Below, piece after piece: positions 1 through 37,115 of a DNA stretch of 37,115 bases. Numbering within the stretch: position 1 is the stretch's first letter; the number at the start of each line of letters is the position of its first letter. A program made the position numbers and the translations under genes. Below the pieces are notes generated by a model. The model saw only the letters and a list, made by a program, of their open reading frames with translations. It ran no database searches and had not been told where the DNA came from. Source of the DNA: a virus; IMG/VR virus record IMGVR_UViG_3300045988_072973; one strand, given 5' to 3'.

Positions 1-55
1 GCATTGACTAAGTTAAGGTCACTCGTACCCGTTACCGCTAATGACTTTGCTTTGA
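1..55. repeat. Exact duplicate of 37061-37115 (terminal overlap of a circular assembly)
   Basis: Read directly: gcattgactaagttaaggtcactcgtacccgttaccgctaatgactttgctttga occurs at both window ends. An ORF is in frame across the join. Confidence 0.9.
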
Positions 56-236
56 GATCATCGTTACCCGCTGATTCACTTTTCTTATACAGATACTCTA
101 AGTCATTCGCAACATAATCTAAAATGCCATCATTTCCCTGCGTGCAAAACGGCGTGTTTTTCCCGAACGCCCCCGGCTGTATTATGTTGTCGTTCTCATC
201 CCGAATTTCCGGATGTTGAAATGTCTGCGGTTTCAT
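1..236 (-). CDS. Tail fibre protein, N-terminal part. It continues at 37060 once the 55-bp overlap is removed (363 aa in total).
   Basis: ATG at 236-234 overlaps the TGA of the upstream ORF (ATGA). Translation MKPQTFQHPEIRDENDNIIQPGAFGKN...DDLKAKSLAVTGTSDLNLVNA joins the frame of 36205-37115, since (236-56) is divisible by 3. Confidence 0.8.
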   Translation of the reverse strand, partial: MKPQTFQHPEIRDENDNIIQPGAFGKNTPFCTQGNDGILDYVANDLEYLYKKSESAGNDDLKAKSLAVTGTSDLNLVN

Positions 237-460
237 TCTTCTACCTCTGCTTTTTCTAACTTTTCGACCGTTTCAGACTCTGATTTTCTGATTTCAAGCG
301 TAACAGTATCGCCGTAGTTCAGTTCATCGGTTTCTTCTTGCGACGTTGTCTGTATCGTCAGCATTTCGCCCGTTTCCGGATTATGAAAGCTGAATGTCGT
401 TAAAACTCCGTCGTTCTGCGGATAAGATACTTTACCGTTTACATTGTAGTTTCTTTTCAT
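233..460 (-). CDS. Hypothetical protein, 75 aa (tail module)
   Basis: ORF track. Tightly packed between tail genes, and its stop overlaps the tail-fibre ATG. Confidence 0.6.
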   Translation of the reverse strand: MKRNYNVNGKVSYPQNDGVLTTFSFHNPETGEMLTIQTTSQEETDELNYGDTVTLEIRKSESETVEKLEKAEVEE

Positions 461-475
461 GATTTTTTCTCCTTT

Positions 476-1222
476 TTAGTAATTTGTAACATCTGATACT
501 AAGTACACCGTGTCTCCGTATGGAATCGCATCCCAAATTTCCCCATCATTATTTGCTTCTGAACGCACAGGGATTTTATCGTACATCTCGGTAGGCAACC
601 CCAGCACATCATATCCAATATATCTCATGCCCTGCTGTGTTAAACAAGCGAACGTTCTATACGATGTTGACATAATAAACAACTCAATAAATCCCAAACC
701 AGCTTCGGATATACTACGGGGAGCATTAAATAAAAATGTAGAAGTACATTGTATAACGCAATATCTACGATTAGGTCTAAATATATTACTGCCCGGCAGA
801 TTATTGTGTCCGCAAAACACTATATTTAACGGTTTCATATTTGAACTGAATATGATATCCCCTTGATTATTATAGATTTCCAGTCCAGTAGACCCAGATT
901 CCCCGGTGTAAAATCCCCATACGTAAATATACACATCATCATAATCCTCAGGGTCCGGCACTATATTGTCGTCTTGAGATATCGTGTACGGTATGATTTC
1001 CGCTTTTTGCGGTTCAATAAAAATAACCGCAGCTCGAATTAAATTTTTTTTGGGATTCCCGACACCTATGAGCAATTCGTCATCGTTCAGCATTACAGTG
1101 TGTCTACCTTCGCTCGTCCTGATGTCTCGTAATTTTATTTTTCTTTTTAAACACAAATTTCTGTACATATCGTCTATAACAATATTTCCGGAAACATTAG
1201 ATACCTCAACATATTTACTCAT
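476..1222 (-). CDS. Hypothetical tail-associated protein, 248 aa
   Basis: ORF track. Position is downstream of the J-like gene. No motif recognised. Confidence 0.6.
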   Translation of the reverse strand: MSKYVEVSNVSGNIVIDDMYRNLCLKRKIKLRDIRTSEGRHTVMLNDDELLIGVGNPKKNLIRAAVIFIEPQKAEIIPYTISQDDNIVPDPEDYDDVYIYVWGFYTGESGSTGLEIYNNQGDIIFSSNMKPLNIVFCGHNNLPGSNIFRPNRRYCVIQCTSTFLFNAPRSISEAGLGFIELFIMSTSYRTFACLTQQGMRYIGYDVLGLPTEMYDKIPVRSEANNDGEIWDAIPYGDTVYLVSDVTNY

Positions 1223-1234
1223 ATAGTTTTCACC

Positions 1235-1759
1235 TCAGTATGTCCCGTAGAGGACAGTTGCGCTAAATGATTTTCCGTCTCCTAAGACGTTGATATCCCA
1301 GTGCAGAACCCCATTTTTGTAGGTAATTCCTGGTACCATCAGTTCTTTTTGTGCCGGTGATGTGTATCCATCTATTTTAATATTAGTGCAGGCAAACCAG
1401 AAATCCGCACTCGATATCCCCGATAAGCGTACCTCTCCGTGAGTACCCGATATGTTAATACTCCCGATACATCGGGTTAGCCGTTCAGTGATATTCAATA
1501 TACATATTCCTTTTTCGTCAAAAACTTGTAACCCTTGCGGCATATACTTAATTGTCACCTCTTTCTTAATCCCGTCTTTAACTATGTACCCTTTGCTTTC
1601 TGTCGGTACTTTTACGATGATTTCTGTATGATTTCCGCCGTCATCAGGCTTTTCGTCCGGCGGCGTTTCTGTGTTGCCTCGTTTCTTCTTTTTCAAGCAC
1701 GCATACACGATGACACCAATAACCGCAATTACAATCAACACGTACATCATTTTTACCAC
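1235..1759 (-). CDS. Membrane-anchored hypothetical protein, 174 aa
   Basis: N-terminal hydrophobic helix MYVLIVIAVIGVIVYACL followed by KKKKR. Overlaps the stop of the J-like gene. Confidence 0.6.
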   Translation of the reverse strand: MVKMMYVLIVIAVIGVIVYACLKKKKRGNTETPPDEKPDDGGNHTEIIVKVPTESKGYIVKDGIKKEVTIKYMPQGLQVFDEKGICILNITERLTRCIGSINISGTHGEVRLSGISSADFWFACTNIKIDGYTSPAQKELMVPGITYKNGVLHWDINVLGDGKSFSATVLYGTY

Positions 1760-6624: not shown

Positions 6625-9600
6625 CAGAACACCCCGCTATTTCCTGCAAAATTCAAATCTTCTTCAAAAAATGCTTTCCGAATTTCGTCTACGGCGCCAT
6701 TACGTAAGAAATCCGCAAACGACGCGGCATCAAGAGTATTGATATCCAAATGTACTGATCTGTTTCCGCCTTTCGTGATCGTTGTTGACTCTATATTCCG
6801 GATGTCTGCAGTCTTTACCGCTCCGCCTTTTGCAAAACGTGGCATACGTCCCGAGTTGATTGCATTAAGCAGTGGTAATCCTACTTTTCGGACAGCGTCA
6901 GCATTGAGAACGTACTCGCCATTAGACAACCAAGCTGGAATACTGTCTGATGTAGCCGTCCCCGGACCGCTGATAGGTCCGCCGGTCGCAAATCCAAACA
7001 TGCCAAATCCGAACCCCGACTTTGCAGACATAAGCTGCAGTGCTACAGTAGCCGCACCGACTGCTGTAGTAAATGCTGCCAAAGCGCCTGTAGCAGTAAC
7101 GGTTGCTCCGACTTCTGTCGGCTTTGTGCCTGTATTAATAGCATTTTGGATGACATTGTACGCGCCCATCACCAGTCCGCCTTTTTGTGTGCTGCCGGAG
7201 AAAAGTCCCAATGCTACATTAGACGCGCTTAAATTGTTTTTGAACGCATCAAACATTGTATTCATACCGTTGTCGTATGTTCCGCCGTTACTGTCATTAT
7301 TATTTCCGCCGAGCAGGCTGCCGCCGAATAGAGATTCTGTCAGACGCCCCGCCCATTGTTGCGTAATCTGCTGTAGTATTGTCTCTCCGATTCCTGTTAT
7401 GAGATTATACAGCGAGTCTCCGAGTGTTTCTGATCCTGTCAAAATGTTTTGGAAAAACTCCTGGAATTTATCAGTTGAGCTCTCCGCAAGTTCTGCAATC
7501 TGCGACTGCATTGACTCATGCCCCGTCTTCCATATACTCAGATACGTTTCAAGGGCTTCTGTCTGTCCTTTCCAGTTCATATAGTCTTGCCCGTCACGGC
7601 TGCTCGTTAATGCCCTAAGCAGATCTGAACGATGGTTATCTATTGCGTATTTTGCCTGTTTTTCAAATGACTCTCTATATGCATCTGTACGTTTCTTTGC
7701 AGCTTCGGCAGTCTTAGCAGTATACCATTCTTCGACAGCCACCATCGCTTCTTTATCTTCTTTGTTTTTAGAAACTTCTTTTAGTCGTTCCGCTCTCTCT
7801 TTGTTGAGCGCATTAACTGTAGCTTCATATTCAGCGTCGGCAAGTGCTTTAAAGTCCCCGGTGAGCTCTGCACCTATTTGTTTCGTTTCGGTCTTGATTT
7901 TGTTCCAGCTTTCTGTCCACGTGTCGGTCAGCTTCTGTTTCATGACCGTTCCGTATGTACTGAGCTGTTTTTGCAGTTGTTCTACCGCGTCTTTCGGAAT
8001 ACCGGCATTAGATAACTTGTTAATCTCTTCCTGCTTCTGTCTGATGTCTTCCGCCAGTTTGTTCATACCTGACATGTAGGCACCTTCGGTTTCGCTGTCT
8101 ATAGATTCCTGCATCGTTGAAAACAGCCGAATTGCCTCTTCTTTCGCCTGATTTAACCGTCTCAACGCCTCGTTGGCTTTTTTACCGATTTCATCAGTTG
8201 TAAGCGTTACTGTTTTACCTCCGGTGTACTCACCTATCGACCCGTAACCAAGCGGATTACCGAACCATTGATTTGCTTCTGACATGCTGCCGCGATGCAC
8301 CCCACCGGTCGAGTTTCTTGCTATATATTCACCGTTTCCGGCATAAATTCCGACATGGTCTTTCCAATCTATCATGTCGCCTTCTTGTGGCACGTATCCT
8401 GTTCCGGCGGTGTGATAAGCCGTACCGAACTGATTTACAAGCTGATTCCCGTTAATTGAGTTCAACCCTTGTATGCCTGCCTCTTGATATAGTGCAGAGA
8501 CAAAAGCGGCGCATTGCACACGGGCATCTTCGACAAGCGGTGACATCCATTGTTCCCCTTCAGGATGCCTCGATGCTATATTTACGACTTCTTGACCTAT
8601 TGGCGCTTCTACTTGATACGTTTTTGCTTCCTTAATCGCCTTTGTATTATCTTTTGTTGCAGATGTTCCCGACTCAAAAGCGGCTTTTAACGCCTCGATT
8701 TGTGAATTTATGGACCCTTTGTCAATGCTCGTTCCGTCACCATATTTTTCGTGTAGTTTTTTAGAGTTCTCGTTAGCGGCAGCATACTTCTTGTTCCATG
8801 CCGCTTTGGCTTCATCATTTTCTTCCTGACTATAAACATTCATCCGTGTTCCGTTTTCTTTGACGCGGATCATTGTATTGTCTTTCTCGCTGTAGTAGTA
8901 ATCTTTACCGTTTACGTTGACATACTGAGCATTTTCGGCTTCTCTTTTTTCTTCCTGATGGAATTCATACAGCTTATACGTTGCGGCTACAATAGCAGCA
9001 GCCACACCCAGCCATCCTCCAGCCAGTGCCCATACCGCACTTGCCGCCTGACGCAACGGACCGAGTGACCCTCTCGCTGCTGTGCTCATTCTGATACCGG
9101 TATCCACAGCGGCTTTTCCGGTCTGTTGTGTAGCAACGGTAACCGCGGTCTGTTCCGCCGCCAGCATATTGCTCGACGCACTGGCCGCCGTATTAGCCGC
9201 AACCATCTTCCCTGCTTCGGCTTTATGTGCACCGGCTGCTGTATTTGCCGCGCTCGCCTGCACTGCTGCCGACTGCCGGGCCTGCATATTGATTTCCTGA
9301 TACGCGGCTGTCATGCGTGCTGCTTCTACTCTTGCGGTTTCAGCCGCTTTAGCTTCTCGCATAACACAGTATTTTGAGTAGCTTGCCTCTTTTTCAGCGT
9401 CTGTCATCTGCGCTGTACTAAGAGTCTTCAAATATGCTTTTTCTTCTGCCATTGCCGCTTTTTCTATGTTTTTTATCCGGCGTGCAATGCTTTTTTCCTG
9501 CTGTACTGTTAGCGCATCTTCTGAAACGTCTCCAGTTCCAATCGACGCAAGCGATCCCATTGCTGATCTTGCTTTTTGCAATGCCTGCAGCGTCTTATAC

Positions 9601-10463
9601 GCCACCGTAAAAGCTACCAGTGTCTTCGTCAGCGACAGCAGATTTTCCTTGTTTTCCGCTATATATTTAGCAGTTGATGCCAATCCCTCTAAAATCGGCG
9701 GCAATACTTCTTTCGCTACCGGCGCAAGTATAGCCCCGCCCGCAATAGCGAGTTGTCCGAGCTGTGCCTGCATTACATCAAGCTCTACGCTTATTTCATG
9801 CATCTGCTTTGCGTCAAGCCCTAATCCTTTGATTTTTGCCGCATTTTCTGATGCTTCATTATAGTTTTGCAGGGTTTTAACAAGCGTCAGACCACGGGCG
9901 CCCAGTGTATTCATGATAAATTCCTGCGCATATCCCGCCTGTGACGCTTTTTGATAACCTGCCGCCAATTGTGCGAGCTGATCGTTAAGAGGCAACAGTT
10001 TACCATTCTGGTCTGTCAGAGTAACACCTACGGCACTTAAGACGGCTCTTGTCTTTTCGGCCGCCTCTCCACTGCCTTTGATTGTTGAGTCGAGACGCAT
10101 AAATGCTTTCCCTGCAAGTTCGCTGTCACCGCCGGTTAGCTTGAGTATTCTTGAGAATTTAGCAGCTTCAGCGTTAGTTATTTGCAGCCTTTGTGCGAGT
10201 TCGTATGTTCTGTTTCCCGCATCAACGGCTCCTTTTATCAGGTTCGTCAGTCCGAATCCCGATGCGGCCAGTGCCGCCATTCCGCCGAACTTACCAATTA
10301 GCGTTTCAAGACTTCCCGTGGTTCCTTCCAGTGCAGACTGCATGTCTCTTACTGGATTAACTTTAAACGCTGTCTTGACAGTCCCCGGTACTTTATTTAA
10401 TTCTTTTTGCAGTCCTGACGAATCCGCGCCAATCTTAAGCTGTAAATCAGAAATAGTAGACAT
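6624..10463 (-). CDS. Tape measure protein with an internal NlpC/P60-type peptidoglycan hydrolase domain, 1279 aa
   Basis: Long Ala/coiled-coil-rich ORF after the chaperone pair. Internal QCAAFVSALYQEAGI...DHVGIYAGNGEYIARNSTGG gives a Cys/His signature (Cys codon 8513-8511, His codon 8357-8355). Confidence 0.9.
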   Translation of the reverse strand: MSTISDLQLKIGADSSGLQKELNKVPGTVKTAFKVNPVRDMQSALEGTTGSLETLIGKFGGMAALAASGFGLTNLIKGAVDAGNRTYELAQRLQITNAEAAKFSRILKLTGGDSELAGKAFMRLDSTIKGSGEAAEKTRAVLSAVGVTLTDQNGKLLPLNDQLAQLAAGYQKASQAGYAQEFIMNTLGARGLTLVKTLQNYNEASENAAKIKGLGLDAKQMHEISVELDVMQAQLGQLAIAGGAILAPVAKEVLPPILEGLASTAKYIAENKENLLSLTKTLVAFTVAYKTLQALQKARSAMGSLASIGTGDVSEDALTVQQEKSIARRIKNIEKAAMAEEKAYLKTLSTAQMTDAEKEASYSKYCVMREAKAAETARVEAARMTAAYQEINMQARQSAAVQASAANTAAGAHKAEAGKMVAANTAASASSNMLAAEQTAVTVATQQTGKAAVDTGIRMSTAARGSLGPLRQAASAVWALAGGWLGVAAAIVAATYKLYEFHQEEKREAENAQYVNVNGKDYYYSEKDNTMIRVKENGTRMNVYSQEENDEAKAAWNKKYAAANENSKKLHEKYGDGTSIDKGSINSQIEALKAAFESGTSATKDNTKAIKEAKTYQVEAPIGQEVVNIASRHPEGEQWMSPLVEDARVQCAAFVSALYQEAGIQGLNSINGNQLVNQFGTAYHTAGTGYVPQEGDMIDWKDHVGIYAGNGEYIARNSTGGVHRGSMSEANQWFGNPLGYGSIGEYTGGKTVTLTTDEIGKKANEALRRLNQAKEEAIRLFSTMQESIDSETEGAYMSGMNKLAEDIRQKQEEINKLSNAGIPKDAVEQLQKQLSTYGTVMKQKLTDTWTESWNKIKTETKQIGAELTGDFKALADAEYEATVNALNKERAERLKEVSKNKEDKEAMVAVEEWYTAKTAEAAKKRTDAYRESFEKQAKYAIDNHRSDLLRALTSSRDGQDYMNWKGQTEALETYLSIWKTGHESMQSQIAELAESSTDKFQEFFQNILTGSETLGDSLYNLITGIGETILQQITQQWAGRLTESLFGGSLLGGNNNDSNGGTYDNGMNTMFDAFKNNLSASNVALGLFSGSTQKGGLVMGAYNVIQNAINTGTKPTEVGATVTATGALAAFTTAVGAATVALQLMSAKSGFGFGMFGFATGGPISGPGTATSDSIPAWLSNGEYVLNADAVRKVGLPLLNAINSGRMPRFAKGGAVKTADIRNIESTTITKGGNRSVHLDINTLDAASFADFLRNGAVDEIRKAFFEEDLNFAGNSGVF

Positions 10464-21837: not shown

Positions 21838-22334
21838 CCGATCCGCATCAACCCAATTTTTACTTCAATCGGGATTTTTTCAACATTGAAATATTCAGCA
21901 TTCTTTATTATGTATACTGCCATTTCTTCTGCATTAACAATAATTACTCCTGCTTCCGGGAATTTTTCAAACAGCACTTTCTTGATTTTTCCCTCATTTT
22001 CTTTGTACATGTTATGCGGAAATGCATAATAGACTGCCTTCGTGTACTTTGTAAGATGTTTTTCTTTCTTCTTGAAATCCGCCAAAAAGTCACTATAACT
22101 GAATTTGATTTCAACCTCCGTTAAATAATCATTTTCATTTATCCATATTAAATCTGCTTCATGACGAACCCCCTTAAACGGATATTCATATTCGATAAGA
22201 CAGCCGTCTTTATCATATTTTTTGATTCTGCATGATGTTCGCGCAAAGCTAACATTCGGTATTACAATATTCTTTTCTCCCAAATGTGCCGCTATTACAT
22301 ATTGCATTACTGCTTCTTCTTTACTTTTACTCAT
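21810..22334 (-). CDS. PD-(D/E)XK-fold protein, MmcB-like
   Basis: HEADLIWINENDYLTEVEIKFSYSDFLADFKKKEKH gives a D...E-x-K pattern. ATGA overlap with the dcm stop. Confidence 0.5.
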   Translation of the reverse strand: MSKSKEEAVMQYVIAAHLGEKNIVIPNVSFARTSCRIKKYDKDGCLIEYEYPFKGVRHEADLIWINENDYLTEVEIKFSYSDFLADFKKKEKHLTKYTKAVYYAFPHNMYKENEGKIKKVLFEKFPEAGVIIVNAEEMAVYIIKNAEYFNVEKIPIEVKIGLMRIGCQKWWRRK

Positions 22335-23783
22335 GTCTCTTCCTTAATGTCTTCAACCACCTTACTCATTACATAGTCAGCACATGGCTGTGCCATTCCG
22401 TTTCCTATTGCTCTGTATCTCGCCGTATCACTCCCGCCCTTTGTCCATTTTTCCGGAAGTCCCTGCAGTCTTTCACATTCAAGCGGCGTAAGGCGGCGGA
22501 CGTATGAGCAATCAATGTTTTTGTATATACATCCCACGGCGCTTGGTCCTCTTGCTACCAGTGTTGAGTTGATTCCGTTATCGCTGATCTTAAAATCATA
22601 TTTTGCATTTGCGCCTTGATTAAATGCCGCCCTGTCAATTGCATAGACAACCGCTAATCTTGTGGATGATTTTAATGTAGATGTTTTATCCTCATAGATC
22701 GGCATGTTGTTTTTTATACTTGCGTCTCTGTTAAATGTGTATATGAGCGGTACTTGATTCCCGCCGGTCCCCATCCTGTTATTGAGTGTCTGTACTGTTC
22801 CGTCATTTCTTTCTCTTATGACGTCTTGCGCGTGTGTCATATCAAGGACGCTTATACAGATGCCGCCTTGGTTTCTTGCTGGATTACTTCCGCTTAGATC
22901 TAACGTGTTGCTTTTGTCTACTTCTTTTATACCCGCTGTCGGATTGTTGCTTTTCATCCCCTCGCTTTCGTATGATCCGATTCTGTATGTTTTGACAAGC
23001 ACACATCTCTGGTCATGCATGCAGTTCAGCGCCCCTGCTTTTTCGCTCATTTTTATAGAGTTTATTTGTCCGTTTCCGATATCATAGACTGATGTTTCAG
23101 TACTTGGTACAGCAATTCGGGTAAGCGTTTCTTTCTTGCTTTCGCTCTTCGCAAAATACCTTGACATGCTTTCGGGCTCAAATAGTACTTCCGGTCTACC
23201 CCCCCCTATTTCTAAAACTTGCAATAAGGAAGATTCTCTCTCGATGCTGGGGGACGCCCCAATATTGAGCGTCGAGGACGCGCCATGCGAGGTGACATCT
23301 CTTACTTCGTACCATTCCGCTTCTTGCCCATTTTCCAGATCCAGGCATTGGAATATTGGCTTGTGTGATTTCGCTAAGCACGGCTTGAAAGTCACGCCCT
23401 TTGTTGCTTGAAAATGCTCCAAGAACGTTTTCCCAGATAAAGTATTTCGGGTATTCTCCTTTTGTGGCATTGAGCATATCGGAAACAATGTCATTTGCCG
23501 TCCTAAATAGTCCGCTTCGTTCACCTTTTAATCCCTCTCTTTTCCCCGCTACCGACAGATCTTGGCACGGGCTCCCCGCACAGATAATGTCCACTGGTGG
23601 TATTTTGTCACCTTTTATTTTTCTGATGTCGCCAAGTTGCATGACGTTCGGAAAGTGTTTTTTTGTGACTTCTATACAAAAAGGTTCTATTTCCGATGAC
23701 CACACGGGAACAGCCCCGTTTCGTTCTGCTGCTATACACCACCCGCCGATTCCGTCAAACAGGCTTCCCACTGTTATTTCCAT
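22331..23783 (-). pseudogene. dcm: DNA (cytosine-5) methyltransferase split into two frames at a G8 tract (about 483 aa if the tract were G7)
   Basis: The N-terminal ORF has motifs I (LFDGIGG), IV (SPCQDLS), VI (ENV) and VIII (QHRERIF) and stops right after the G8 run (plus-strand C8 at 23199-23206). The +1 frame continues to motifs IX and X (RRLTPLECERLQG, AIGNGMAQP). Confidence 0.85.
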
Positions 23784-25912: not shown

Positions 25913-26893
25913 TCAGAATAACGTTGAACTTTGTGATTCATATACAGCTCGTTCAAGGTTCTTTACCGCCTGTGCATAGTACGAATCTTTCAGTTCGATG
26001 CCAATGTACTTTCTTCCCATTTTTACGGATTGATAGCCTTCTGACCCGATGCCCATAAACGGTGACAGCACGATATCTTCTGGATTTGACCACAGCTCCA
26101 CCCCGCGGGCGATTACGTCCAATTGGAGCGGCGCGATGTGTCTTTCATCGTCTTTATCCCTCGCCTGCTGTCTGTTGAGTGTGTTTGACTGGTCGATATC
26201 CATCCATACGGGGGATGCGTATTTCCGCCATGTGTGATGAGAATACGTCGGATCAAGCCGGCTCATAGATATATTTTTGTGGATTTCACTGTTCTTCAGT
26301 GTGGCCGCTCTTTTCGGTGCATTTGGCTCGTTCTCTCCATAGAACCGTGTCAATCCGTCTTTGTGTGTGATGAGTTCCGGATTGTTCCCCGGTTTCCTCA
26401 TTGTAATCAGATAATCCGGCAGTCCGTTTCTACACATACTGCTGTCTTTCATAAGCTGTTTATGCATAAGTCCGATGGCTTTTGTTCTTGTTGCTTCTAT
26501 CAGCGGGTCTTTCCATATCGTTACTCTTGAGTGATAGATAAATCCGTATTCTTCAAAAAGCCGTATCATGTCTCCCGGAAAATCTTTCAGTCCGATGTAT
26601 CCGTCCCGTTCTTTCATCGCTGGTATGTCCATGCAGTGGATAGATATATTTCTTCCTGGTTTAAGGACTCTTGCTAATTCGCTTACAAGGAAACGGAAAT
26701 GTGTATAAAATTCATCGTCGTTTTTGCTGTTTCCCATGTCTTCCAGATAGTTGCTGTACGTGTACAGTGACGAAAACGGCGGAGAAAAGATGGAATAATC
26801 GATGGAATTATCTGGGATGCCTTTGATTACTTCGCAGCAGTCTCCGTGATAAATCGAGTACTTCTCTTGTATTTCCTGATGCAGTATATTCAT
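25913..26893 (-). CDS. Beta-class N4/N6 DNA methyltransferase
   Basis: The SPPF catalytic motif (IFSPPFSS) precedes the C-terminal FxGxG (SPFMGIGSEG). Start moved to ATG 26893 (AAGGAG + 7 nt, ATGA overlap with the SNF2 stop). Confidence 0.85.
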   Translation of the reverse strand: MNILHQEIQEKYSIYHGDCCEVIKGIPDNSIDYSIFSPPFSSLYTYSNYLEDMGNSKNDDEFYTHFRFLVSELARVLKPGRNISIHCMDIPAMKERDGYIGLKDFPGDMIRLFEEYGFIYHSRVTIWKDPLIEATRTKAIGLMHKQLMKDSSMCRNGLPDYLITMRKPGNNPELITHKDGLTRFYGENEPNAPKRAATLKNSEIHKNISMSRLDPTYSHHTWRKYASPVWMDIDQSNTLNRQQARDKDDERHIAPLQLDVIARGVELWSNPEDIVLSPFMGIGSEGYQSVKMGRKYIGIELKDSYYAQAVKNLERAVYESQSSTLF

Positions 26894-28275
26894 GCTGTTT
26901 CTCCTTTCAGCCATTCTGGCAGTCTCATTGCGGTATGCGGTTCATACCTGCTCTGCTGTCTTTTTGTGCTTCGTATATTGTTTTCTGTGATGTGCTGTGT
27001 AGCTTGTATCATGCCTTTCAGCATGCATTCAAAATCCTGCTCTTTTCTTCTGATGTTTGCGACAACGGCTCCCTCTGTATCCGCTACGACAAAATAGACA
27101 TTGACCTCGTGTGTCTGCCCGAACCTCCAGCACCGCCGGACCGCTTGATAATATTGTTCAAAACTGTCAGATAAGCCCACAAATATCATGTTGTGACAAT
27201 GCTGCCAGTTCATGCCAAATCCGCAGATAGACGGCTTGGATATAAATACACGGATTTTCCCGTCGCTGAAATCTTCCATCATCTGTGTTTTGTATTCCGC
27301 CTTGTCAGATCCTTTGACTTCTACCGCCCCCGGTATAGCCGCTTTCAGTGCTTCTCCTTCGGCGTTGAGATTGCACCATATAAGCCATGTGTCTTGTGAT
27401 TGATTGACCAGTTCGGCGGCAGCCGCCACTCTTTGCATGATGCTTTCCCGTCTTGCCTGTTGCCGTTCCTGCAATGTTGACGCTTCCACCGGAAACAGAA
27501 ATCCATCCATTGTTTCTGTCTGTACGGTCACCTGCTGGATGGTGAGCGGCGGCAATTCAAATTTTCTTCCGTCATATCCTAAGTCTGTCGGGTTTGTCAT
27601 CATGACCGCCCATGAAGATACCCATTCCCAAAAATCGGAGACGGCGTGTCCCTTTAGTCTCCATTTGCTCGTATTGCTCCCGTCGTGGATAAAGAACATG
27701 GCAAGCATTTCCAATTCTGTCATGATTCCTAAAAATTCGGAGTGGTTTCCTAATTCCATATAGTCATTCGGTGCCGGTGTGGCGGTGCATGCTAAACGGA
27801 ATGGAACGTCTCTTGATTTATTGATGAGTTCGGTACGGATTTTCCCCGTCTGTGATTTGAGAATAGATGACTCGTCCAAAACCAGTCCGTGAAAACGTCC
27901 GAAATCAAATTTATCCATTTTTTCATAGTTTGTAATATTGATCCCTGGTCTGACGTCTTCATTAGATGTTGCAACATGGACTGCCAGCCCCATTTTTTCT
28001 CCTTCTTTGACTGTCTGATGGTCTACAGCAAGCGGAGCCAATATCAGCACGTCTCCACCGACAACTGATGCCCATGCCAATTGCATTCTTGTCTTTCCTA
28101 ATCCTGTTCCCGCGAAGATGGCGCTCCTACCTTTTGCTACTGCCCATCTGACGATATCCACCTGGTAATCAAATAGGCTCGGAAATTTCTTCTTGATTGT
28201 TTCTACCGGCATCTCTATTCCGCATGTCTTGGCTGAAAATTCTTTTGATTTCAAAAATTCTATGTATGATTTCAT
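26890..28275 (-). CDS. SNF2-family helicase
   Basis: GTGLGKT (motif I), LVLDESS (motif II) and a helicase-C region ending ...QAVRRCWRFGQ. Start moved to ATG 28275 (MKSYIEF, ATGA overlap with the rep stop). Confidence 0.85.
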   Translation of the reverse strand: MKSYIEFLKSKEFSAKTCGIEMPVETIKKKFPSLFDYQVDIVRWAVAKGRSAIFAGTGLGKTRMQLAWASVVGGDVLILAPLAVDHQTVKEGEKMGLAVHVATSNEDVRPGINITNYEKMDKFDFGRFHGLVLDESSILKSQTGKIRTELINKSRDVPFRLACTATPAPNDYMELGNHSEFLGIMTELEMLAMFFIHDGSNTSKWRLKGHAVSDFWEWVSSWAVMMTNPTDLGYDGRKFELPPLTIQQVTVQTETMDGFLFPVEASTLQERQQARRESIMQRVAAAAELVNQSQDTWLIWCNLNAEGEALKAAIPGAVEVKGSDKAEYKTQMMEDFSDGKIRVFISKPSICGFGMNWQHCHNMIFVGLSDSFEQYYQAVRRCWRFGQTHEVNVYFVVADTEGAVVANIRRKEQDFECMLKGMIQATQHITENNIRSTKRQQSRYEPHTAMRLPEWLKGETA

Positions 28276-29108
28276 GTTCTTCTCCTTGGCTTGTCTCTTG
28301 CCTGTTTCACAGTACATTCTTTTTTCTTCTTCGGTACTCTTGACTGTGTAATCGGCCATACGTTCCTTTCGTTCACTTTGTACATTCTGTAAAACTGGTA
28401 AGGAAATCCGTCCGCTGTGTAGCCGCTTTCTACTTTGACTATCTGGTATCCCTTTCTCGGTGTCGGATTGTCTTTCCATTTCCGTGCGTAGATTGTTACC
28501 TTTTTCACATTTGGCTGCTTCAGATTTTTAGACGGCACCCATCGGATTTTTTGTACGGCGGTTTCATTTCGGATTTCTTCATCGGTTTCTTTTACAAAAT
28601 ATTCCGCAAGTCTCATGCAGTCTTCCGGGCTCCCGTCAAAATACCTGAATGATCTGTAATTGAATTTTGCCCATGGCCAGCAATCATTAATTTCTGATCT
28701 TGATATTCCGCAGTCATTAATCAAGACGTGATGATGGACTCGATGGCAGACATGTTCTGTGACGTAGATGTATTTCAGTTCCGCATTTTTCTTTTTATAT
28801 TTTTTGCGGAGGTCTCTGATAAATTTTCTTATTCTGTTTTTTGCTTCTTCTGCTGTCGGCTCCGGATTTGCATATGTCAAGTCAATACGCAGATCATCTC
28901 TTTTGAAATTCGTTGCTATGAGCCGATAGAGTTTTGTTTTCGCCCGGCGGGAGTTTCTTTTCTTGAGTCCCTTATCTGTTTTTTGAATATTGGGACCTCT
29001 GACTCTGTTACCCCCTAATCGATATGTGTGATATTTTTTCACTTCATAAATTCCGGGGGCTTGAAATATTTCTTTTCGGTACGGCACTTTTTTAAATTCC
29101 TGTTCCAA
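28272..29108 (-). CDS. HUH rolling-circle replication initiator (Rep)
   Basis: Motif I-like RIDLTY, HUH motif HRVHHHVLIN and motif III YxxK (AEYFVKE). The only starts are TTG 29108 (no SD) or GTG 29087. Confidence 0.65.
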   Translation of the reverse strand: MEQEFKKVPYRKEIFQAPGIYEVKKYHTYRLGGNRVRGPNIQKTDKGLKKRNSRRAKTKLYRLIATNFKRDDLRIDLTYANPEPTAEEAKNRIRKFIRDLRKKYKKKNAELKYIYVTEHVCHRVHHHVLINDCGISRSEINDCWPWAKFNYRSFRYFDGSPEDCMRLAEYFVKETDEEIRNETAVQKIRWVPSKNLKQPNVKKVTIYARKWKDNPTPRKGYQIVKVESGYTADGFPYQFYRMYKVNERNVWPITQSRVPKKKKECTVKQARDKPRRRT

Positions 29109-29188: not shown

Positions 29189-29194
29189 TTATGT

Positions 29195-29690: not shown

Positions 29691-29700
29691 AAGATATATG

Positions 29701-31187: not shown

Positions 31188-31430
31188 TTACGCCCTCATC
31201 TTTCTAACTTCCGCCCGGAAATTATATCCGCTTTGTTTCATCTTCCGTTTCTGCGCATTCTCTTCCATTTTCCGCCGGATAGCCGATTCCGCATCTTTCG
31301 GATCAAACAGATACGCCTTCCCTGATGGAATGAACGGTATCTCTCCTATCCTGCATAGTGCCCGTATTGTTGTAACCGGATATCCGGTTGTCTTACAGAA
31401 ATCTTTTGTATTCGTAAGCATACTTATCAC
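31188..31430 (-). CDS. HTH DNA-binding protein (excisionase/MerR-like), 80 aa
   Basis: TKDFCKTTGYPVTTIRALCRIGEIPFIPSGKAYLF. Confidence 0.6.
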   Translation of the reverse strand: MISMLTNTKDFCKTTGYPVTTIRALCRIGEIPFIPSGKAYLFDPKDAESAIRRKMEENAQKRKMKQSGYNFRAEVRKMRA

Positions 31431-31450
31431 CTCTCTCTTTTTTGTTTGAT

Positions 31451-31480: not shown

Positions 31481-31505
31481 TTGAACAGGAAGGAGGTGAA
31501 CTAAT

Positions 31506-31718
31506 ATGAATCCAATTGAAATTAGGTTCAAGCTGAACGGTAAAGTGTCTGATATAACTCCTGAGATACATACCGAAAAACCAGGATACATGCATCATCG
31601 ATATTCGTATAAAGGTAAAATCATAGCTGAAACGATTATTGATAGTAGCAATACTTTTATTAAGACAGATTACAGATTCAGCCTCATTGACGGCATGATC
31701 GTCATTTTTGTTGAGTAG
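31506..31718 (+). CDS. Hypothetical protein, 70 aa, oriented against the early operon
   Basis: GGAGGTGA lies 7 nt before the ATG. Has its own candidate promoter. Confidence 0.6.
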   Translation: MNPIEIRFKLNGKVSDITPEIHTEKPGYMHHRYSYKGKIIAETIIDSSNTFIKTDYRFSLIDGMIVIFVE

Positions 31719-31914
31719 CCAATGCTATGCGTGGATTGTCGTTTTGGTCGAAAACGACAAGTCGATTAGAACACACAAGTATATGGTCTTTAAACTGGAT
31801 AATTTCACTATCGCCCAGTTTTAAAGATGGAGCTCCGTTGCCGCGGGGCTCTTTTTTTATAAACGCTCTTAACTCTTCTGCGTTTCCTTCTATCGTTACT
31901 TTCATCCTTTTCAC
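31702..31914 (-). CDS. Hypothetical protein, 70 aa
   Basis: ORF track. Its 3' end overlaps the convergent plus-strand gene by 17 nt. Confidence 0.5.
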   Translation of the reverse strand: MKRMKVTIEGNAEELRAFIKKEPRGNGAPSLKLGDSEIIQFKDHILVCSNRLVVFDQNDNPRIALATQQK

Positions 31915-31944
31915 CTCTCTTCCTTTCTCTCAAAAATATATTTT

Positions 31945-31961
31945 GTATCTTTTTAGGATAC
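31945..31961. promoter_or_regulatory. Operator-like site O3: GTATCTTTTTAGGATAC
   Basis: Same 17-bp family (GTrTC-N7-GAyAC) as the sites in the switch region. Confidence 0.5.
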
Positions 31962-32174
31962 TCTTTCGTTAAAAAAAATAGCGTCTATTTCTTCCGGCTT
32001 TAATTTATACCTATCTTTTATAAAAAGTATTTCTGCCTGTCGAAAATCTGCCCCACCGTTGATTTTTAGATTTAATCGAGATAGGCTTATCCCTAACGCA
32101 TTCGCTAAATCTTTTTGACTATCTCCATATTTCATCATTTCTGCCCTCATCAATGGTTTATTCATTTTTTTCAC
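31953..32174 (-). CDS. Cro-like XRE-family HTH protein, 73 aa
   Basis: SQKDLANALGISLSRLNLKINGG. First gene of the leftward operon, divergent from the repressor. Confidence 0.75.
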   Translation of the reverse strand: MKKMNKPLMRAEMMKYGDSQKDLANALGISLSRLNLKINGGADFRQAEILFIKDRYKLKPEEIDAIFFNERVS

Positions 32175-32188
32175 CTCACTTTCTTTTA

Positions 32189-32205
32189 GTGTCTTTTCAG
32201 GACAC
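32189..32205. promoter_or_regulatory. Operator-like site O2: GTGTCTTTTCAGGACAC
   Basis: Matches O1 at 13 of 17 positions. Lies just downstream of the leftward -10. Confidence 0.55.
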
Positions 32206-32209
32206 CTTG

Positions 32210-32238
32210 ATTGTATATCTGTTTTTGTATCTTGTCAA
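32210..32238 (-). promoter_or_regulatory. Leftward early (lytic) promoter TTGACA-17 nt-TACAAT
   Basis: Minus strand: TTGACA 32238-32233 and TACAAT 32215-32210. Confidence 0.65.
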
Positions 32239-32243
32239 GATAC
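32227..32243. promoter_or_regulatory. Operator-like site O1: perfect palindrome GTATCTTG-T-CAAGATAC
   Basis: Read directly. Overlaps the -35 of the leftward promoter. Confidence 0.65.
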
Positions 32244-32249
32244 TTTTTC

Positions 32250-32277
32250 TTGTTTTCAAAAAATTTTATGGTATAAT
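32250..32277 (+). promoter_or_regulatory. Rightward repressor promoter TTGTTT-16 nt-(TGg)TATAAT (extended -10)
   Basis: TTGTTT 32250-32255, TG 32269-32270 and TATAAT 32272-32277. Confidence 0.6.
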
Positions 32278-32291
32278 CAAGACACGAAAGG

Positions 32292-32750
32292 ATGGTGATG
32301 CATATGGAATTTAAAGATATCCTTTATACTTTAAGAAAAAAGAATAAGCTAACACAGCAGGAAGTTGCAGAATATGTAGGTTTGCAAAAAGCAGCTATAT
32401 ACAAATATGAACACGGCTTGCTTGTTAATCCCAAACGATCATTGATTTCAAAATTGGCTAAGTTATTTCAAGTTACCCCATCGTATATGATGGGATTAAC
32501 CGATGATGATAAGTCTGCTCATATGTCTCTTGGCACCTCCCTTACCAAAAAGGATGAAAAAGATATTCAAAAAAGGCTGTCCGATATTTTAAATGATATG
32601 GACGGTCAGGATTCTATTGCTATGTATAACGGCGGAGAACCGATGGATCCCGAAACACGGGAGTACATGAAAGCATCTCTTGAAAATGCTCTCCGCTTTG
32701 CAAAATTAAAAGCTAAAGAAAAGTTTACTCCAAAGAAACATCGTAAATAA
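32292..32750 (+). CDS. CI-like XRE-family repressor
   Basis: N-terminal HTH LTQQEVAEYVGLQKAAIYKYEHG plus a C-terminal domain. Alternative starts at 32298 and 32304. Confidence 0.8.
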   Translation: MVMHMEFKDILYTLRKKNKLTQQEVAEYVGLQKAAIYKYEHGLLVNPKRSLISKLAKLFQVTPSYMMGLTDDDKSAHMSLGTSLTKKDEKDIQKRLSDILNDMDGQDSIAMYNGGEPMDPETREYMKASLENALRFAKLKAKEKFTPKKHRK

Positions 32751-32761
32751 AGGATTACATC

Positions 32762-33205
32762 ATGAATATAAAAAAGTTCGCAAATGATATAGCGAATATA
32801 CATGACACAAGGAATCCGTTCCATATTGCTGCGGAAAATGACATCCATATCTTATATGAAGAGCTCGGGAAGAATTTGGGATATTTCAGTAATTTGTTTC
32901 GCATCAAAACAATACGAATAAATGATCATGCCGATCCGTTTCTCCAGCCGTTCATCTGTGCTCATGAACTCGGCCATGCGCTGCTTCATCCGCATGCCGG
33001 CACCCATGCTTTTAATAGAAATTCTTTTATTGCTAATTGCAAGATTGAAAAAGAAGCGAATCAGTTTGCCGTAGAATTGCTGTTCCCTGATGAATTGATA
33101 GCTTGTCATCCGGAAACGGATATTTATAATCTGGCGCGTACATTCGGTATTCCATATCAATTGGTTTATCTTAAGTCTATTTCTTACGGGGCACGTCATT
33201 TATAA
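32762..33205 (+). CDS. ImmA/IrrE-family zinc metalloprotease
   Basis: HEXXH motif (CAHELGHALLH). Lies immediately downstream of the repressor. Confidence 0.8.
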   Translation: MNIKKFANDIANIHDTRNPFHIAAENDIHILYEELGKNLGYFSNLFRIKTIRINDHADPFLQPFICAHELGHALLHPHAGTHAFNRNSFIANCKIEKEANQFAVELLFPDELIACHPETDIYNLARTFGIPYQLVYLKSISYGARHL

Positions 33206-33217
33206 AGGAGTCGAAAA

Positions 33218-33763
33218 ATGAAAAAAGTAGAATTGTTGATTACACTATTAATTACTATCATGTCTTTATTTACATTTAATATCGCTTATGCATCGGCTCC
33301 AAATGTCGCAGTTTTAATGGCTGGCGCAAGACAATCTACAAAAGATAAAAATGAATTGAAAGAGCTAAAAGCAAGGCAGCAGTTGATTGTGAATGCTATG
33401 CAAGGATCCATGATACCGGAAGAAAAAACAGCGCAGGTCGCTAATGATTATATTTTAGGCAATAAGATTGATATTTCGTTCAGTACAACAGATTTAATTA
33501 ATATCGGAAAACTCCTGAATGCCGACTACATCGTATATAGCCAATTTTATATTGATAAAATAAATGCCCCCGGATTATTTCATACAACAATGAAATTTAA
33601 AGGACAAACCGTATTAACAATTATAGATGTCCACTCCGGAGAATATAAATATAAAATTTCAGAAGATGTAAACAATGGAAAATTGAAAGATGTTTCGCGG
33701 TCTATGTTCATCGTGTATGACAAATCGATAGCAGATATTAAATTAAAAGGTTTAAAATTTTAA
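33218..33763 (+). CDS. Secreted protein, 181 aa (lysogeny-expressed moron candidate)
   Basis: Signal peptide MKKVELLITLLITIMSLFTFNIAYA/SAP. Sits in the repressor operon. Confidence 0.6.
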   Translation: MKKVELLITLLITIMSLFTFNIAYASAPNVAVLMAGARQSTKDKNELKELKARQQLIVNAMQGSMIPEEKTAQVANDYILGNKIDISFSTTDLINIGKLLNADYIVYSQFYIDKINAPGLFHTTMKFKGQTVLTIIDVHSGEYKYKISEDVNNGKLKDVSRSMFIVYDKSIADIKLKGLKF

Positions 33764-33942
33764 AACCGAACCATAATACCACTGGTAACAACGGAAAGAG
33801 GATGTGGTTGCGTGAAACAGTATAAAAGAGGATCCTTGATTTACGATAAGATCCATGACAGCTATCGTGCTTTTGTTATGATCAATAGCACGCTCATTTT
33901 GCGCGCGCAACCATTTTATTATAAATTATCTTTATACCACGC

Positions 33943-33969
33943 AATAAAAAAGAGGGCGGTTTCCCGCCC
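33943..33969 (-). terminator. Intrinsic terminator ending the late operon
   Basis: Minus strand reads GGGCGG-gaaa-CCGCCC-TCTTTTTTATT, just after the stop at 33972. Confidence 0.7.
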
Positions 33970-33971
33970 CG

Positions 33972-34454
33972 TTAATTACTTAATTTATCTACCAGCCAGC
34001 CCGTCGCTACTGCCCCTGCGATGTATGACCAGAGGTTTCTTTGCCGTTTTGCAAGCTTCACGTCATGCGTCAGGTCATCTATTTTCTTCGTCAATCTGTC
34101 TAAAGATATCTGTAGCTTCATCAAGTTCTCTTCGGCTTTCTGCAATGATATCTCTGCACTCCGCAATTGTTTCTGCGTTTCTATCAATTCTTTTCTGCAC
34201 TCTATCAGCTGATTCTGCAGCTCGGTCAACGCTTGAGATGCTTCTGTCGAGTTGCTCTCCAGCAGATTTAATTTGCTCTCCAGCAGATCTAACCGCATCT
34301 GCTGATTGCTTGCTGTACTCTTGAGCTTCTCGTACTGCGTCCTTTGCATCGTTACCGTTTCGGTTGCCACCGGTGCCTGTGCATATGAGATAGACAAGCA
34401 GGGCGCAGACAGCAACGACAACGCAAGCAATAGCGATAATTTTTTTCTTCTCAT
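33972..34454 (-). CDS. Coiled-coil envelope protein with an N-terminal signal peptide (Cys19) and a C-terminal hydrophobic segment. Candidate spanin-like lysis accessory, 160 aa.
   Basis: MRRKKLSLLLALSLLSAPC..., then Leu/Gln/Glu heptads, then ...LWSYIAGAVATGWLVDKLSN. The ATG is 8 nt after GGGGTG. Codon choice (cag, acg, ccg, ctg) matches the capsid gene better than the overlapping frame does. Confidence 0.55.
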   Translation of the reverse strand: MRRKKLSLLLALSLLSAPCLSISYAQAPVATETVTMQRTQYEKLKSTASNQQMRLDLLESKLNLLESNSTEASQALTELQNQLIECRKELIETQKQLRSAEISLQKAEENLMKLQISLDRLTKKIDDLTHDVKLAKRQRNLWSYIAGAVATGWLVDKLSN

Positions 34455-34459
34455 ACATT

Positions 34460-34984
34460 TTACACCCCATTTTCTAAATACCACTGCGCTTTTCCGCGGA
34501 GAATATCTCCGCCGGTCCCGATTTCGTCCTGATCACAGAGCTGCTCTAAATCCCATCGGCAGTCAGAATCCCCGCTGTACAGTCCATAGCCGTCGTCATT
34601 CGCCGCTTCGCCGTGTGTCATAAAATACTCACGATTAATCGGATTGTCGAAAACTTCGGCAATGACAGCAAACATCTTTGCCAGCGTTTCAATCTGCGCT
34701 TCCGTCGGCGGGTACTCGCCTAAGTCATTCGGACGTGCATTGTAGCAGCAGCATAAAGCAATAGCAATACTGCCTGTATTTCTGTGATATGTCGCCCTCG
34801 GTACCTCATCAAGCGGTCTTGTGTAGATGATTTCACCGTCTCCGTCAACGTTAAAATGATAATCGTTAAATGTTGTAAAATACCGCCCAGCCGACCAATG
34901 TCCGTAAGTCGTCGCTGGCCACGGAAACTGATAAAAATAGCTCCGTTTATCAATGAGCTCTTGTTTAAATTCGGCTATTGTCAT
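34460..34984 (-). CDS. Endolysin: single-domain N-acetylmuramoyl-L-alanine amidase (Amidase_2/PGRP-like)
   Basis: GHWSAGRY, HRNTGSIAIALC and MTHGEAAND contexts. 174 aa with no recognisable cell-wall-binding domain. Follows the holin. Confidence 0.75.
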   Translation of the reverse strand: MTIAEFKQELIDKRSYFYQFPWPATTYGHWSAGRYFTTFNDYHFNVDGDGEIIYTRPLDEVPRATYHRNTGSIAIALCCCYNARPNDLGEYPPTEAQIETLAKMFAVIAEVFDNPINREYFMTHGEAANDDGYGLYSGDSDCRWDLEQLCDQDEIGTGGDILRGKAQWYLENGV

Positions 34985-35002
34985 AAATACCTCCTATCTA
35001 AA

Positions 35003-35024
35003 ATAGCCGCTAAATAGCGGCTAT
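35003..35024 (-). promoter_or_regulatory. Hairpin ATAGCCGC-N6-GCGGCTAT between holin and endolysin
   Basis: Read directly. Overlaps the holin stop and is followed by TTTAGATAGGAGG (the endolysin SD). Confidence 0.4.
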
Positions 35025-35662
35025 TTCTTGAGCTTTGCAAATATATTGTTGTCAAGTAATGTTATCAACTTGTCTATGTGATGATTGCCTGCGTCTCTTA
35101 AATTCTCACAAATAGATAAAATTTCGTTGTAACAAATGTACCCGAACATGAATTTAAGCACCGGCCACGAAAGCGGAATCTCAATTGCTGATAAAACCGT
35201 ATCAATCTGCGAAGCAGTAAGAATGAGAATTGTGAAGAGAATAAATTTTGTCAGAAACCCCCACAGCATGATTTTCGATTTTAAGCGTTTTGCGCTGAAC
35301 GCAAGAACAATGCCGTATAGTTTTTCACGTGTCGTCAAGTAGTCGGGATCCATCCCTTTATCTACTAAGTATTGATATCCAATGGCCAGCCAGCGTGTAG
35401 AGATGTCAATAATAATCAACCAAAAATAAGCATTGAGTACCACGCCGTAGGAACTGTTGATGAACGATAGAATATACATCAACACAACACTTACGACCGT
35501 CTTCGATTCCCATTTGTCTAAGAGATTAATGCTTGTTCGGCAGAAATACTCCGCAAAATCAATCAAATCTAAGACAAAAACGCAGGTAACGAATCCGCCC
35601 CACATCACCGGTGGTTTGTTATACTTACGTATTTTCCTTTTCAAGTTTTGAAAAAAAGTCAT
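35021..35662 (-). CDS. Holin (Phage_holin_4_1 / TcdE-like C-terminal signature)
   Basis: Several TM segments. C-terminal YNEILSICENLRDAGN resembles the family's NE.LSI.EN...G motif. Confidence 0.7.
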   Translation of the reverse strand: MTFFQNLKRKIRKYNKPPVMWGGFVTCVFVLDLIDFAEYFCRTSINLLDKWESKTVVSVVLMYILSFINSSYGVVLNAYFWLIIIDISTRWLAIGYQYLVDKGMDPDYLTTREKLYGIVLAFSAKRLKSKIMLWGFLTKFILFTILILTASQIDTVLSAIEIPLSWPVLKFMFGYICYNEILSICENLRDAGNHHIDKLITLLDNNIFAKLKK

Positions 35663-35671
35663 GTTGTCCCC

Positions 35672-36190
35672 TCATTCATTCGTAAAATCAGAAATAAACT
35701 CAAACATACAACTCCCTGTTTTCAGCATGGAGTTCGGATACATTCCGATTTTACCGTCAGCCGTATACATGCGTGATAAATTGACAAAACCGCCAGAGAG
35801 CTCTACATACGCGCCGTATCCTTTTTCTTCTTTCGTCAGCACATCGCAGTACATCATCGGATACGTAAGTAATTCATGCCTTACGAACCTTGACGCCGGA
35901 TATCTATCTAAATATGCAGTAGCAATACCAATTGAACTGTTGTAAAAATTCAGCCATCTAAATTCTGTCGTATTTGTACCCGAATCAATGCATGCACATT
36001 GCACGGTAAACTTTACACGCCGATATCCCTCTTCTGTATAGCCTACAATTTCCGCAACGACGGTACCGATATGCGGCGTCATAAATCCAATATTCCCCAA
36101 AAATTTCTTATTTACGATTCCGGTTGCTCTGGCTTTCATTCTTTTGTCTACTATTCTGAATTTTGCACTTCCGTCTGTTATTTCCCGCAT
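35672..36190 (-). CDS. Hypothetical protein, 172 aa (downstream of the tail fibre)
   Basis: Start moved to ATG 36190 (AAGGAG + 8 nt). Confidence 0.55.
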   Translation of the reverse strand: MREITDGSAKFRIVDKRMKARATGIVNKKFLGNIGFMTPHIGTVVAEIVGYTEEGYRRVKFTVQCACIDSGTNTTEFRWLNFYNSSIGIATAYLDRYPASRFVRHELLTYPMMYCDVLTKEEKGYGAYVELSGGFVNLSRMYTADGKIGMYPNSMLKTGSCMFEFISDFTNE

Positions 36191-36204
36191 TTTGTTTACT
36201 CCTT

Positions 36205-37115
36205 TCAATCGTTTGTTAAATATACTAAACATGCAACAGATTCATGTCCTGGCGATGTAGTATATTCATCCGTATAACTGAGATATAGTTTACCGTCTGT
36301 ATTTATTGTCAATCGTACAGCTTTACCGTTGCTGTTGTTTATAGGGGCATAAAATTCAAGATTTATAAATGATTTTGGTAGCCCCGATGCAATTTCAATG
36401 AGACCTTCTTTTGCACTTTTCATTCGTACAAAAAGATGCACTATGTTTTTTATTTTTACACACGATAAATTTTCGATGTACTGTGAGTCTATAGTCGCAT
36501 TAATTGTTTCCATCTTTCCGTAATTATTGAGTTTTTCATCTACATATTCTTTTGCGGTTACCGTTTTGACCGTCCATTTCACGCTTCCGTCATTAACTTC
36601 TACCCCCCCCGATATAGTTGACAAATTAGGTTCGGTGGCTGCTGTTGTGCCTGCTTGCGTGCACTCAAGATATGCCCATGACGGAAGTTTCGATGAGTAA
36701 ACGATATCGCCGACTTTATATGCTTTCATGCGTTGTAGCCTATTTGTAAATGACGCTGTTTCTTCTAAGGCTGCCTGATTCGCCTTTTTGTCTACTTTTG
36801 TTGATACCGCAGCTAAATCCGATTGATTTGCTTTCTTGCCAATTTGATTAGAGACCGTTGTTGCAAAATTCGGGTCATTACCGAGTGCTGTCGCTAATTC
36901 ATTAAGCGTATCAAGAGTTTCCGGTGCGGCTCCGACAAGTCCGGATACTGCACTTTGTACAAATTCTGTATTCGCAATTGTTTTAGAATTGTCACCTGTC
37001 GGTGCCGTTGGCGCTGCACTCGTACCCGTTACCGCTAATGACTTTGCTTTGACCGTATCAGCATTGACTAAGTTAAGGTCACTCGTACCCGTTACCGCTA
37101 ATGACTTTGCTTTGA
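36205..37115 (-). CDS. Tail fibre protein, C-terminal part (the N-terminus is at 236-1 across the circular junction)
   Basis: The frame is open from the window end. ...AAPETLDTLNELATALGNDPNFATTVSNQIGKKANQSDLAAVSTKVDKKANQ... is typical of phage fibre shafts. The ORF-track M at 36729 is internal. Confidence 0.8.
   Translation of the reverse strand, partial: KAKSLAVTGTSDLNLVNADTVKAKSLAVTGTSAAPTAPTGDNSKTIANTEFVQSAVSGLVGAAPETLDTLNELATALGNDPNFATTVSNQIGKKANQSDLAAVSTKVDKKANQAALEETASFTNRLQRMKAYKVGDIVYSSKLPSWAYLECTQAGTTAATEPNLSTISGGVEVNDGSVKWTVKTVTAKEYVDEKLNNYGKMETINATIDSQYIENLSCVKIKNIVHLFVRMKSAKEGLIEIASGLPKSFINLEFYAPINNSNGKAVRLTINTDGKLYLSYTDEYTTSPGHESVACLVYLTND
37018..37115. repeat. 35-nt perfect direct repeat at 63-nt (21-codon) spacing inside the tail-fibre gene
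   Basis: actcgtacccgttaccgctaatgactttgctttga occurs at 37018-37052 and 37081-37115 (equivalent to 21-55). Both copies encode KAKSLAVTGTS. Confidence 0.85.

Follow-up and report, generated by a model that had tools for sequence, protein, structure and literature searches.

The viral DNA analyzed here, a stretch of 37,115 nt (IMG/VR record IMGVR_UViG_3300045988_072973; the whole stretch is called the window below), carries the immunity switch of a temperate phage in a closed genome, but no gene for an integrase. This raises the question of how such a phage would be maintained as a prophage. The initial annotation, made from the sequence alone, left three options: an episomal, phage-plasmid-like prophage, towards which it leaned; integration by host Xer recombinases at a dif-like site; or a formerly temperate phage that lost its integrase gene (int). 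Our results point to the last of these. The window is very probably a lambda b2-like derivative that arose by spontaneous deletion from a temperate Dialister invisus siphovirus of about 42.2 kb, with the removal of int, the phage attachment site (attP) and the neighbouring cargo genes. The missing integrase is an ordinary loss, and no new mode of prophage maintenance. The coordinates of all features are collected in Table 1.

We took the 258 open reading frames (ORFs) of at least 40 aa from the six frames of the circularized sequence, packed them into pseudo-proteins and scanned them against Pfam, with further scans against PHROG families and PADLOC. None of these ORFs matched a tyrosine, serine or DDE recombinase family at E ≤ 0.01, and the PF00589 catalytic domain had no match in any of the six frames of the window. 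The earlier statement that no integrase exists in any frame holds for recombinase domains, but it overlooked a short integrase remnant just downstream of the immunity genes. A tblastn search with the 358-aa integrase of a related locus (L031) matched the window over residues 1-26 only (33812-33889, 92% identity). The remnant opens a 170-aa ORF which is probably a fusion artefact of the deletion and no real gene; gene callers did not call it on contig L124. An orphan excisionase/Cox-like gene, whose integrase partner is gone, is a candidate for a further vestige of the integrative past.

The Rep, ImmA and endolysin proteins of the window, used as queries, each retrieved dozens of IMG/VR relatives at 87-99% amino-acid identity, mostly of 39-43 kb compared with 37 kb for the window. 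In these relatives, the ImmA gene is followed by the gene for a 181-aa protein and then directly by that for a 358-aa tyrosine integrase (PF00589 E 3e-25 in the parent contig L126). The integrase was found by tblastn, full length or nearly so and 93-99.7% identical, in the slot after the 181-aa gene in at least 39 related loci. Five further loci have a different tyrosine integrase, which takes up this slot in four otherwise close relatives (L035, L038, L039 and L041; 28% identical, at about 11.7-12.2 kb in locus coordinates). From this alternative integrase, a different bacterial attachment site (attB) is expected in part of the family.

By comparing phage-form and integrated copies, we mapped the att core to 54 bp (L031 12283-12336; CTCCGGAACCAGGTGCGAGGGTTCGAATCCCTCTAGGCGCTCCATTTATTTTAA). 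The core is the 3' part of tRNA-Arg(CCG), and completes an intact tRNA-Arg(CCG) gene at attR in locus L099. It occurs in the relatives as attP, attL and attR, with attP located 3' of the integrase gene in the phage form. The integrated copies sit in D. invisus chromosomes, between alr-hemN-lepA and tRNA-Arg-thrC. The host was identified by exact look-up of the flanking housekeeping proteins: LepA, Alr and ThrC are exact D. invisus proteins. These relatives lie on chromosomal contigs of up to 465 kb (one integrated copy is on a 465-kb scaffold) and are not separate replicons. Related prophages integrated next to an integrase gene that is simply missing here are what the initial annotation had named beforehand as speaking against its idea, and the integrase-bearing loci, with copies flanked by D. 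invisus genes, are of this kind. A scan for ImmA in species-representative bacterial genomes gave only a 40%-identical match, in a Bacillales metagenome-assembled genome.

The integrase gene is interrupted at a single junction. In a blastn comparison, locus L031, which of the relatives in phage form is the closest, aligned with the window in two blocks (window 31911-33885 with L031 9156-11125, and window 33885-35665 with L031 16338-18115). Position 11125 of L031 is thus joined to 16338, leaving a clean gap of 5,213 nt and microhomology of about 1 nt. The block deleted from the phage's own lineage measures about 5,128 nt. Microhomology at the breakpoints is 0-1 nt, and neither breakpoint carries a long repeat. 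The att core lies inside the deleted block, and the window contains no copy of its 54 nt even with 14 mismatches allowed. In the lineage of the window itself, the lost cargo that separates the lysis operon from attR consists of five genes of unknown function and a gene for a 240-aa Type II-like N6 methylase, which was the only defence match of PADLOC on the deleted cargo. The right breakpoint falls 68 nt beyond the strong terminator hairpin of the late operon; the terminator and all lysis genes are kept, and no lytic gene is damaged.

The parental form was found, by exact-protein look-up, in sibling runs of the same ENA project, PRJEB1220, a longitudinal human gut cohort (PMC8269207); the sibling runs may come from one person. 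On the left arm, contigs from ERR209717, ERR209716 and ERR209803 follow the window at 100.000% identity for up to 10,667 nt. The match stops at position 33884, beyond which these contigs run on into the full integrase gene, attL, and host alr, hemN and lepA. The left-arm loci L126, L128 and L131 match the window at 100% as far as 33884, after which they have the full integrase gene. On the right arm, from exactly 33885 towards the lysis and tail genes, identity was 100% for contigs from ERR209804 and 99.95-99.97% for contigs from ERR209716 and ERR209717, which on their other side contain the cargo, the methylase, attR, host thrC and an RND pump gene. The right-arm loci L140, L135, L137 and L138 were 99.95-100% identical up to the exact breakpoint. 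The window therefore has what marks an int/attP deletion derivative, namely a collinear, near-identical parent and a single novel junction with a truncated gene remnant. What an integrating phage would carry, a complete tyrosine recombinase and an attP core of the same sequence as the host attB, is missing from it. Among the options of the initial annotation, the loss of int from a formerly temperate phage is thus borne out by the integrase stump, the deletion junction and the integrase-bearing parent contigs.

The ends of the window share an exact overlap of 55 nt (1-55 = 37061-37115), which gives a circle of 37,060 bp. As the 55-mer is unique and a complete ORF for a 363-aa tail fibre runs intact across the join, we accepted the closure that had been proposed from the sequence. 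False circularization through a 36-nt internal repeat just inside the 3' end, part of a 63-nt periodic repeat of the fibre gene, was considered and ruled out on the same two grounds. A separate concern is that the deletion junction was made by the assembler, the real molecule still carrying int. Outside the deletion the parental and deleted forms have the same sequence, and both occur in sibling runs, which could tangle the assembly graph; the circular overlap also falls inside the 63-nt repeat. However, since the breakpoints share no repeat, the assembler could not have joined them without spanning reads: with 0-1 nt in common there is no k-mer path other than through such reads, and a de Bruijn collapse is excluded. 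The junction 60-mer is exact in loci L124 and L130, and the junction is identical in three independent assemblies of run ERR209715 (the window itself, with its 55-nt overlap; the ENA MEGAHIT k127 contig; and the Logan contig, the latter two 100% identical to the window). We thus consider a chimera very unlikely. An exact search found the junction neither in JGI metagenome contigs nor in IMG/VR, and no other related locus spans it, for which reason we take it to be a private, recent event.

The episomal reading supposes that the circle without int persists as a plasmid under repression and relies on its HUH Rep and helicase for replication. The contig is indeed circular, its repression switch is complete, and it has a replication module of its own. 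The presence of the Rep, as had been proposed, was supported by its PF23343 match (REP_ORF2-G2P; 42.7 bits against a cut-off of 27.8), by phrog_3584, and by the motifs HHHVLI (HUH) at residue 118 and YFVK (YxxK, with the catalytic Tyr) at residue 163. However, the same Rep and helicase are found, at 95-98% amino-acid identity, in integrase-bearing relatives that integrate at tRNA-Arg. The Rep is part of the normal replication module and no substitute for an integrase; it was considered as a substitute recombinase and rejected owing to its conservation in integrated relatives that have an integrase. Relative to the integrating parent nothing was gained, sequence was only lost, and no more than a single run showed the variant. 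The six-frame Pfam scan and the PHROG scans showed no ParA/ParB, resolvase, toxin-antitoxin or other maintenance family. Episomal maintenance is therefore very improbable. For XerC/D integration at a dif-like site, as in CTX-phi, nothing speaks beyond the absence of an integrase, and this family uses its own tyrosine integrase with a tRNA-Arg attB. With up to 3 mismatches allowed, the dif core consensus ATAATRTAYATTATGTNAA had 0 matches in the window (0.24 expected by chance), although this consensus may differ from the D. invisus dif, and we found no assembly with a 37-kb genome at the D. invisus dif site. We give this route almost no probability. Since the defining features of both were looked for and not found, the window is neither a phage-plasmid nor an Xer-dependent element.

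Some points weigh against the window being a simple deletion derivative. The junction was found in the assemblies of a single run, ERR209715, so there is no sign that the variant spreads, and its support comes from assembled contigs. The deleted genome may be present in virions, as a replicating circle inside cells or as a dead-end product of excision. In its immunity region the variant does not differ from the resident prophage, and growth on co-resident lysogens should consequently fail. Its rise to an abundance at which it was assembled to closure would most simply be accounted for by D. invisus cells in the same gut that are not lysogenic, or by a burst following induction; a repressed episome is a less likely answer. 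On this last reading the circle, having lost int and attP, would be a snapshot of a switch in lifestyle, existing in some D. invisus cells as a CI-repressed episome through the HUH Rep and helicase. We hold this to be quite doubtful; if true, such an episome would explain the assembly-level abundance despite immune lysogens.

Taking the window as an int-attP-cargo deletion derivative, we propose the following course of events. The parent integrates by means of its 358-aa tyrosine integrase, with a 54-bp attP core corresponding to the 3' part of the host tRNA-Arg(CCG) gene, and integration regenerates the tRNA at attR. One illegitimate (non-homologous) join, which fused int codon 24/25 to sequence 68 nt past the lysis-operon terminator, then removed about 5.1 kb, with the rest of int, attP, the five accessory genes and the N6 DNA methylase. 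The deletion may have arisen in an excised or replicating circle, or by aberrant excision joining two internal points of the prophage; the product would be the same either way. The lytic gene set (Rep, helicase, SSB, TerS/TerL/HNH, head, tail, holin and endolysin) and the full repressor/ImmA/Cro-like switch with its operators were kept. The derivative would still be able to replicate, package its genome (88% of the parental length) and lyse the cell normally, and to set up repression. Without integration, it would be limited to lytic growth or to abortive, segregating lysogens.

The immunity switch that had been recognized from the sequence was largely confirmed, with PF01381 and PF06114 matches for the CI-like repressor and the ImmA-type protease, and three palindromes as operators. 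The palindrome GTRTC-N7-GAYAC has three copies in the whole window, every one of them in the switch region. The divergent Cro-like gene is present as well, and its assignment from domain matches is tentative. The layout is of the ImmR/ImmA type, a helix-turn-helix (HTH_3) repressor gene being immediately followed by a co-directional Peptidase_M78 gene. The window thus retains one trait of integrating temperate phages, a repressor/anti-repressor switch with operators. Exact look-up of the repressor protein returned short contigs only. In relative L056, a 179-aa repressor (9450-9989) has a different N-terminal HTH domain and a C-terminal half as in the window's repressor; this looks like a swap of the DNA-binding domain, which would give a new immunity type. 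The 181-aa protein with a signal peptide, which had no match in Pfam, PHROG or PADLOC, belongs to the lysogeny operon; candidate roles are those of a superinfection-exclusion factor or of a lysogeny-expressed surface or surface-modifying factor.

Several known systems can be compared to the window. Lambda b2-type and int-attP deletion mutants are viable, and keep the immunity switch and the lytic functions while att and/or int are lost. As in these, a deletion of a few kb affected a non-essential arm next to att, and the window, with about 88% of the parental length, is predicted to be packageable. Unlike them, it comes from a human gut metagenome, with no laboratory selection, and its host is a diderm Firmicute, D. 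invisus. Its deletion also takes a methylase and five accessory genes of unknown function. Temperate phages of dairy Streptococcus and Lactococcus (e.g., the Sfi21 lineage) give spontaneous derivatives with deletions in the lysogeny module. There, too, a natural deletion makes an integrating temperate siphovirus non-lysogenizing, and parent and derivative are otherwise nearly identical. However, the dairy-phage deletions usually hit the repressor and yield virulent phages, whereas the repressor, ImmA, Cro-like gene and operators of the window are intact.

The mycobacteriophages of Cluster A with parABS, P1 and N15 are temperate phages that lack an integrase and have partition systems. They share with the window a temperate-type repressor without an integrase. 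In contrast to their parABS or other maintenance cassette in the int slot, that slot in the window holds only an int stump of 24 codons and the deletion scar, and a partition gene was found nowhere in the genome. ImmR/ImmA-type immunity modules are present in ICEBs1 and in phage phi105, in which, as in the window, an HTH_3 repressor gene precedes a co-directional Peptidase_M78 protease gene, both divergent from the early lytic genes. In the window, cleavage of the repressor by the protease is a prediction.

Table 1. Features of the window, in order of position.
Feature	Position	Strand	Remarks
SNF2-type helicase	26890..28275	-	downstream of Rep; Helicase_C E 4.5e-8; called as 461 aa in L124
HUH rolling-circle-type replication initiator (Rep)	28272..29087	-	PF23343 E 7e-11; phrog_3584 E 2e-46
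Orphan excisionase/Cox-like HTH protein, candidate Xis	31188..31421	-	phrog_575 E 2.3e-5; phrog_66 E 3e-4; HTH_17 E 0.0037 (below cut-off)
Operator copy 1, GTATCTTTTTAGGATAC	31945..31961		palindrome match
Cro-like small HTH protein (tentative)	31953..32165	-	divergent from repressor; DUF739 E 9e-4 (below Pfam cut-off); PHROG repressor families about 3e-4
Operator copy 2, GTGTCTTTTCAGGACAC	32189..32205		divergent intergenic region
Operator copy 3, GTATCTTGTCAAGATAC	32227..32243		divergent intergenic region
CI-like HTH_3 repressor	32304..32750	+	ORF can start at 32292; PF01381 E 2.4e-11; phrog_8 E 4e-18
ImmA/IrrE-type metalloprotease (Peptidase_M78), putative anti-repressor protease	32762..33205	+	PF06114 E 1.2e-18; phrog_87 E 4e-26
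181-aa signal-peptide protein	33218..33763	+	between ImmA and int in all relatives; position kept in L031, L056, L124-L131
Tyrosine integrase gene, 5' remnant of 24 codons	33812..33884	+	GTG start; encodes residues 1-24, MKQYKRGSLIYDKIHDSYRAFVMI
170-aa fusion ORF from the deletion	33812..34324	+	integrase N-terminus + antisense of region downstream of lysis operon
Deletion junction	33884..33885		about 5.1 kb missing: int codons 25-358, attP, five cargo genes, N6 methylase
Intrinsic terminator-like hairpin at end of late (lysis) operon	33953..33970	-	kept; 68 nt inside right breakpoint
127-aa membrane/coiled-coil protein, final lysis-operon gene	34075..34458	-	intact; phrog_18860 E 6.5e-7
Lysis cassette	34460..35662	-	intact; Amidase_2 endolysin 34460-34984 (PF01510 E 2e-8); holin 35021-35662 (PF05105 E 8e-11)
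Terminal overlap, 55 nt	37061..37115		identical to 1-55; assembly circularisation, within tail-fibre gene

In the six-frame Pfam scan, the gene content of the window was typical of an HK97/RcGTA-like siphovirus, and the gene sets for replication, packaging, morphogenesis and lysis were complete. The packaging and head genes comprise TerS, TerL, HNH, portal, S78 protease, capsid and connectors; the tail genes comprise the tube, the tape measure and an RcGTA-like distal tail protein; and the early region contains SSB, dUTPase, two DNA methylases, the SNF2-type helicase and the HUH Rep. When the whole window was compared by megablast with 50,697 phage records, no relative appeared and the sole match was 143 nt in the helicase gene; our search of the literature found nothing specific on this Dialister phage or on close precedents.

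We also observed some variable regions. The cargo arm is wholly different between relatives (L031 12474-16051; L135 10629-14354), save for the terminal N6 methylase, and its unknown genes had no PADLOC or Pfam match, apart from one weak ribbon-helix-helix match. The 63-nt repeat of the tail-fibre gene (window 36205-37115 plus 56-236, minus strand) encodes AKSLAVTGTS, and a Logan contig of ERR209716 (L141) has a fibre of 342 aa, one repeat fewer than the 363 aa of the window. The C5 cytosine methylase gene (22331-23783, minus strand) falls into two ORFs that overlap and differ in frame, 23196-23783 covering profile positions 2-160 and 22331-23524 covering positions 269-322; the relative L129 has a single product of 483 aa. 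The split could be due to a frameshift or to a variable target-recognition insert. In L127 (2022-4523), the SNF2-type helicase and an N6/N4 methylase are called as one fusion protein of 833 aa.

These results call for care in interpretation. A lysogeny switch in a complete circular phage genome that lacks an integrase is not by itself evidence of an episomal or Xer-dependent lifestyle, and comparison with close relatives can reveal a fresh deletion scar. The phage belongs to a widespread gut phage family of about 90 IMG/VR contigs, assigned to D. invisus and with tRNA-Arg(CCG) as its attB. Within this family, runs of a single longitudinal human gut cohort contained both a parent prophage and the derivative that lacks int and attP, with near-100% identity between the two, which provides a natural example of temperate phages shedding their integration module.

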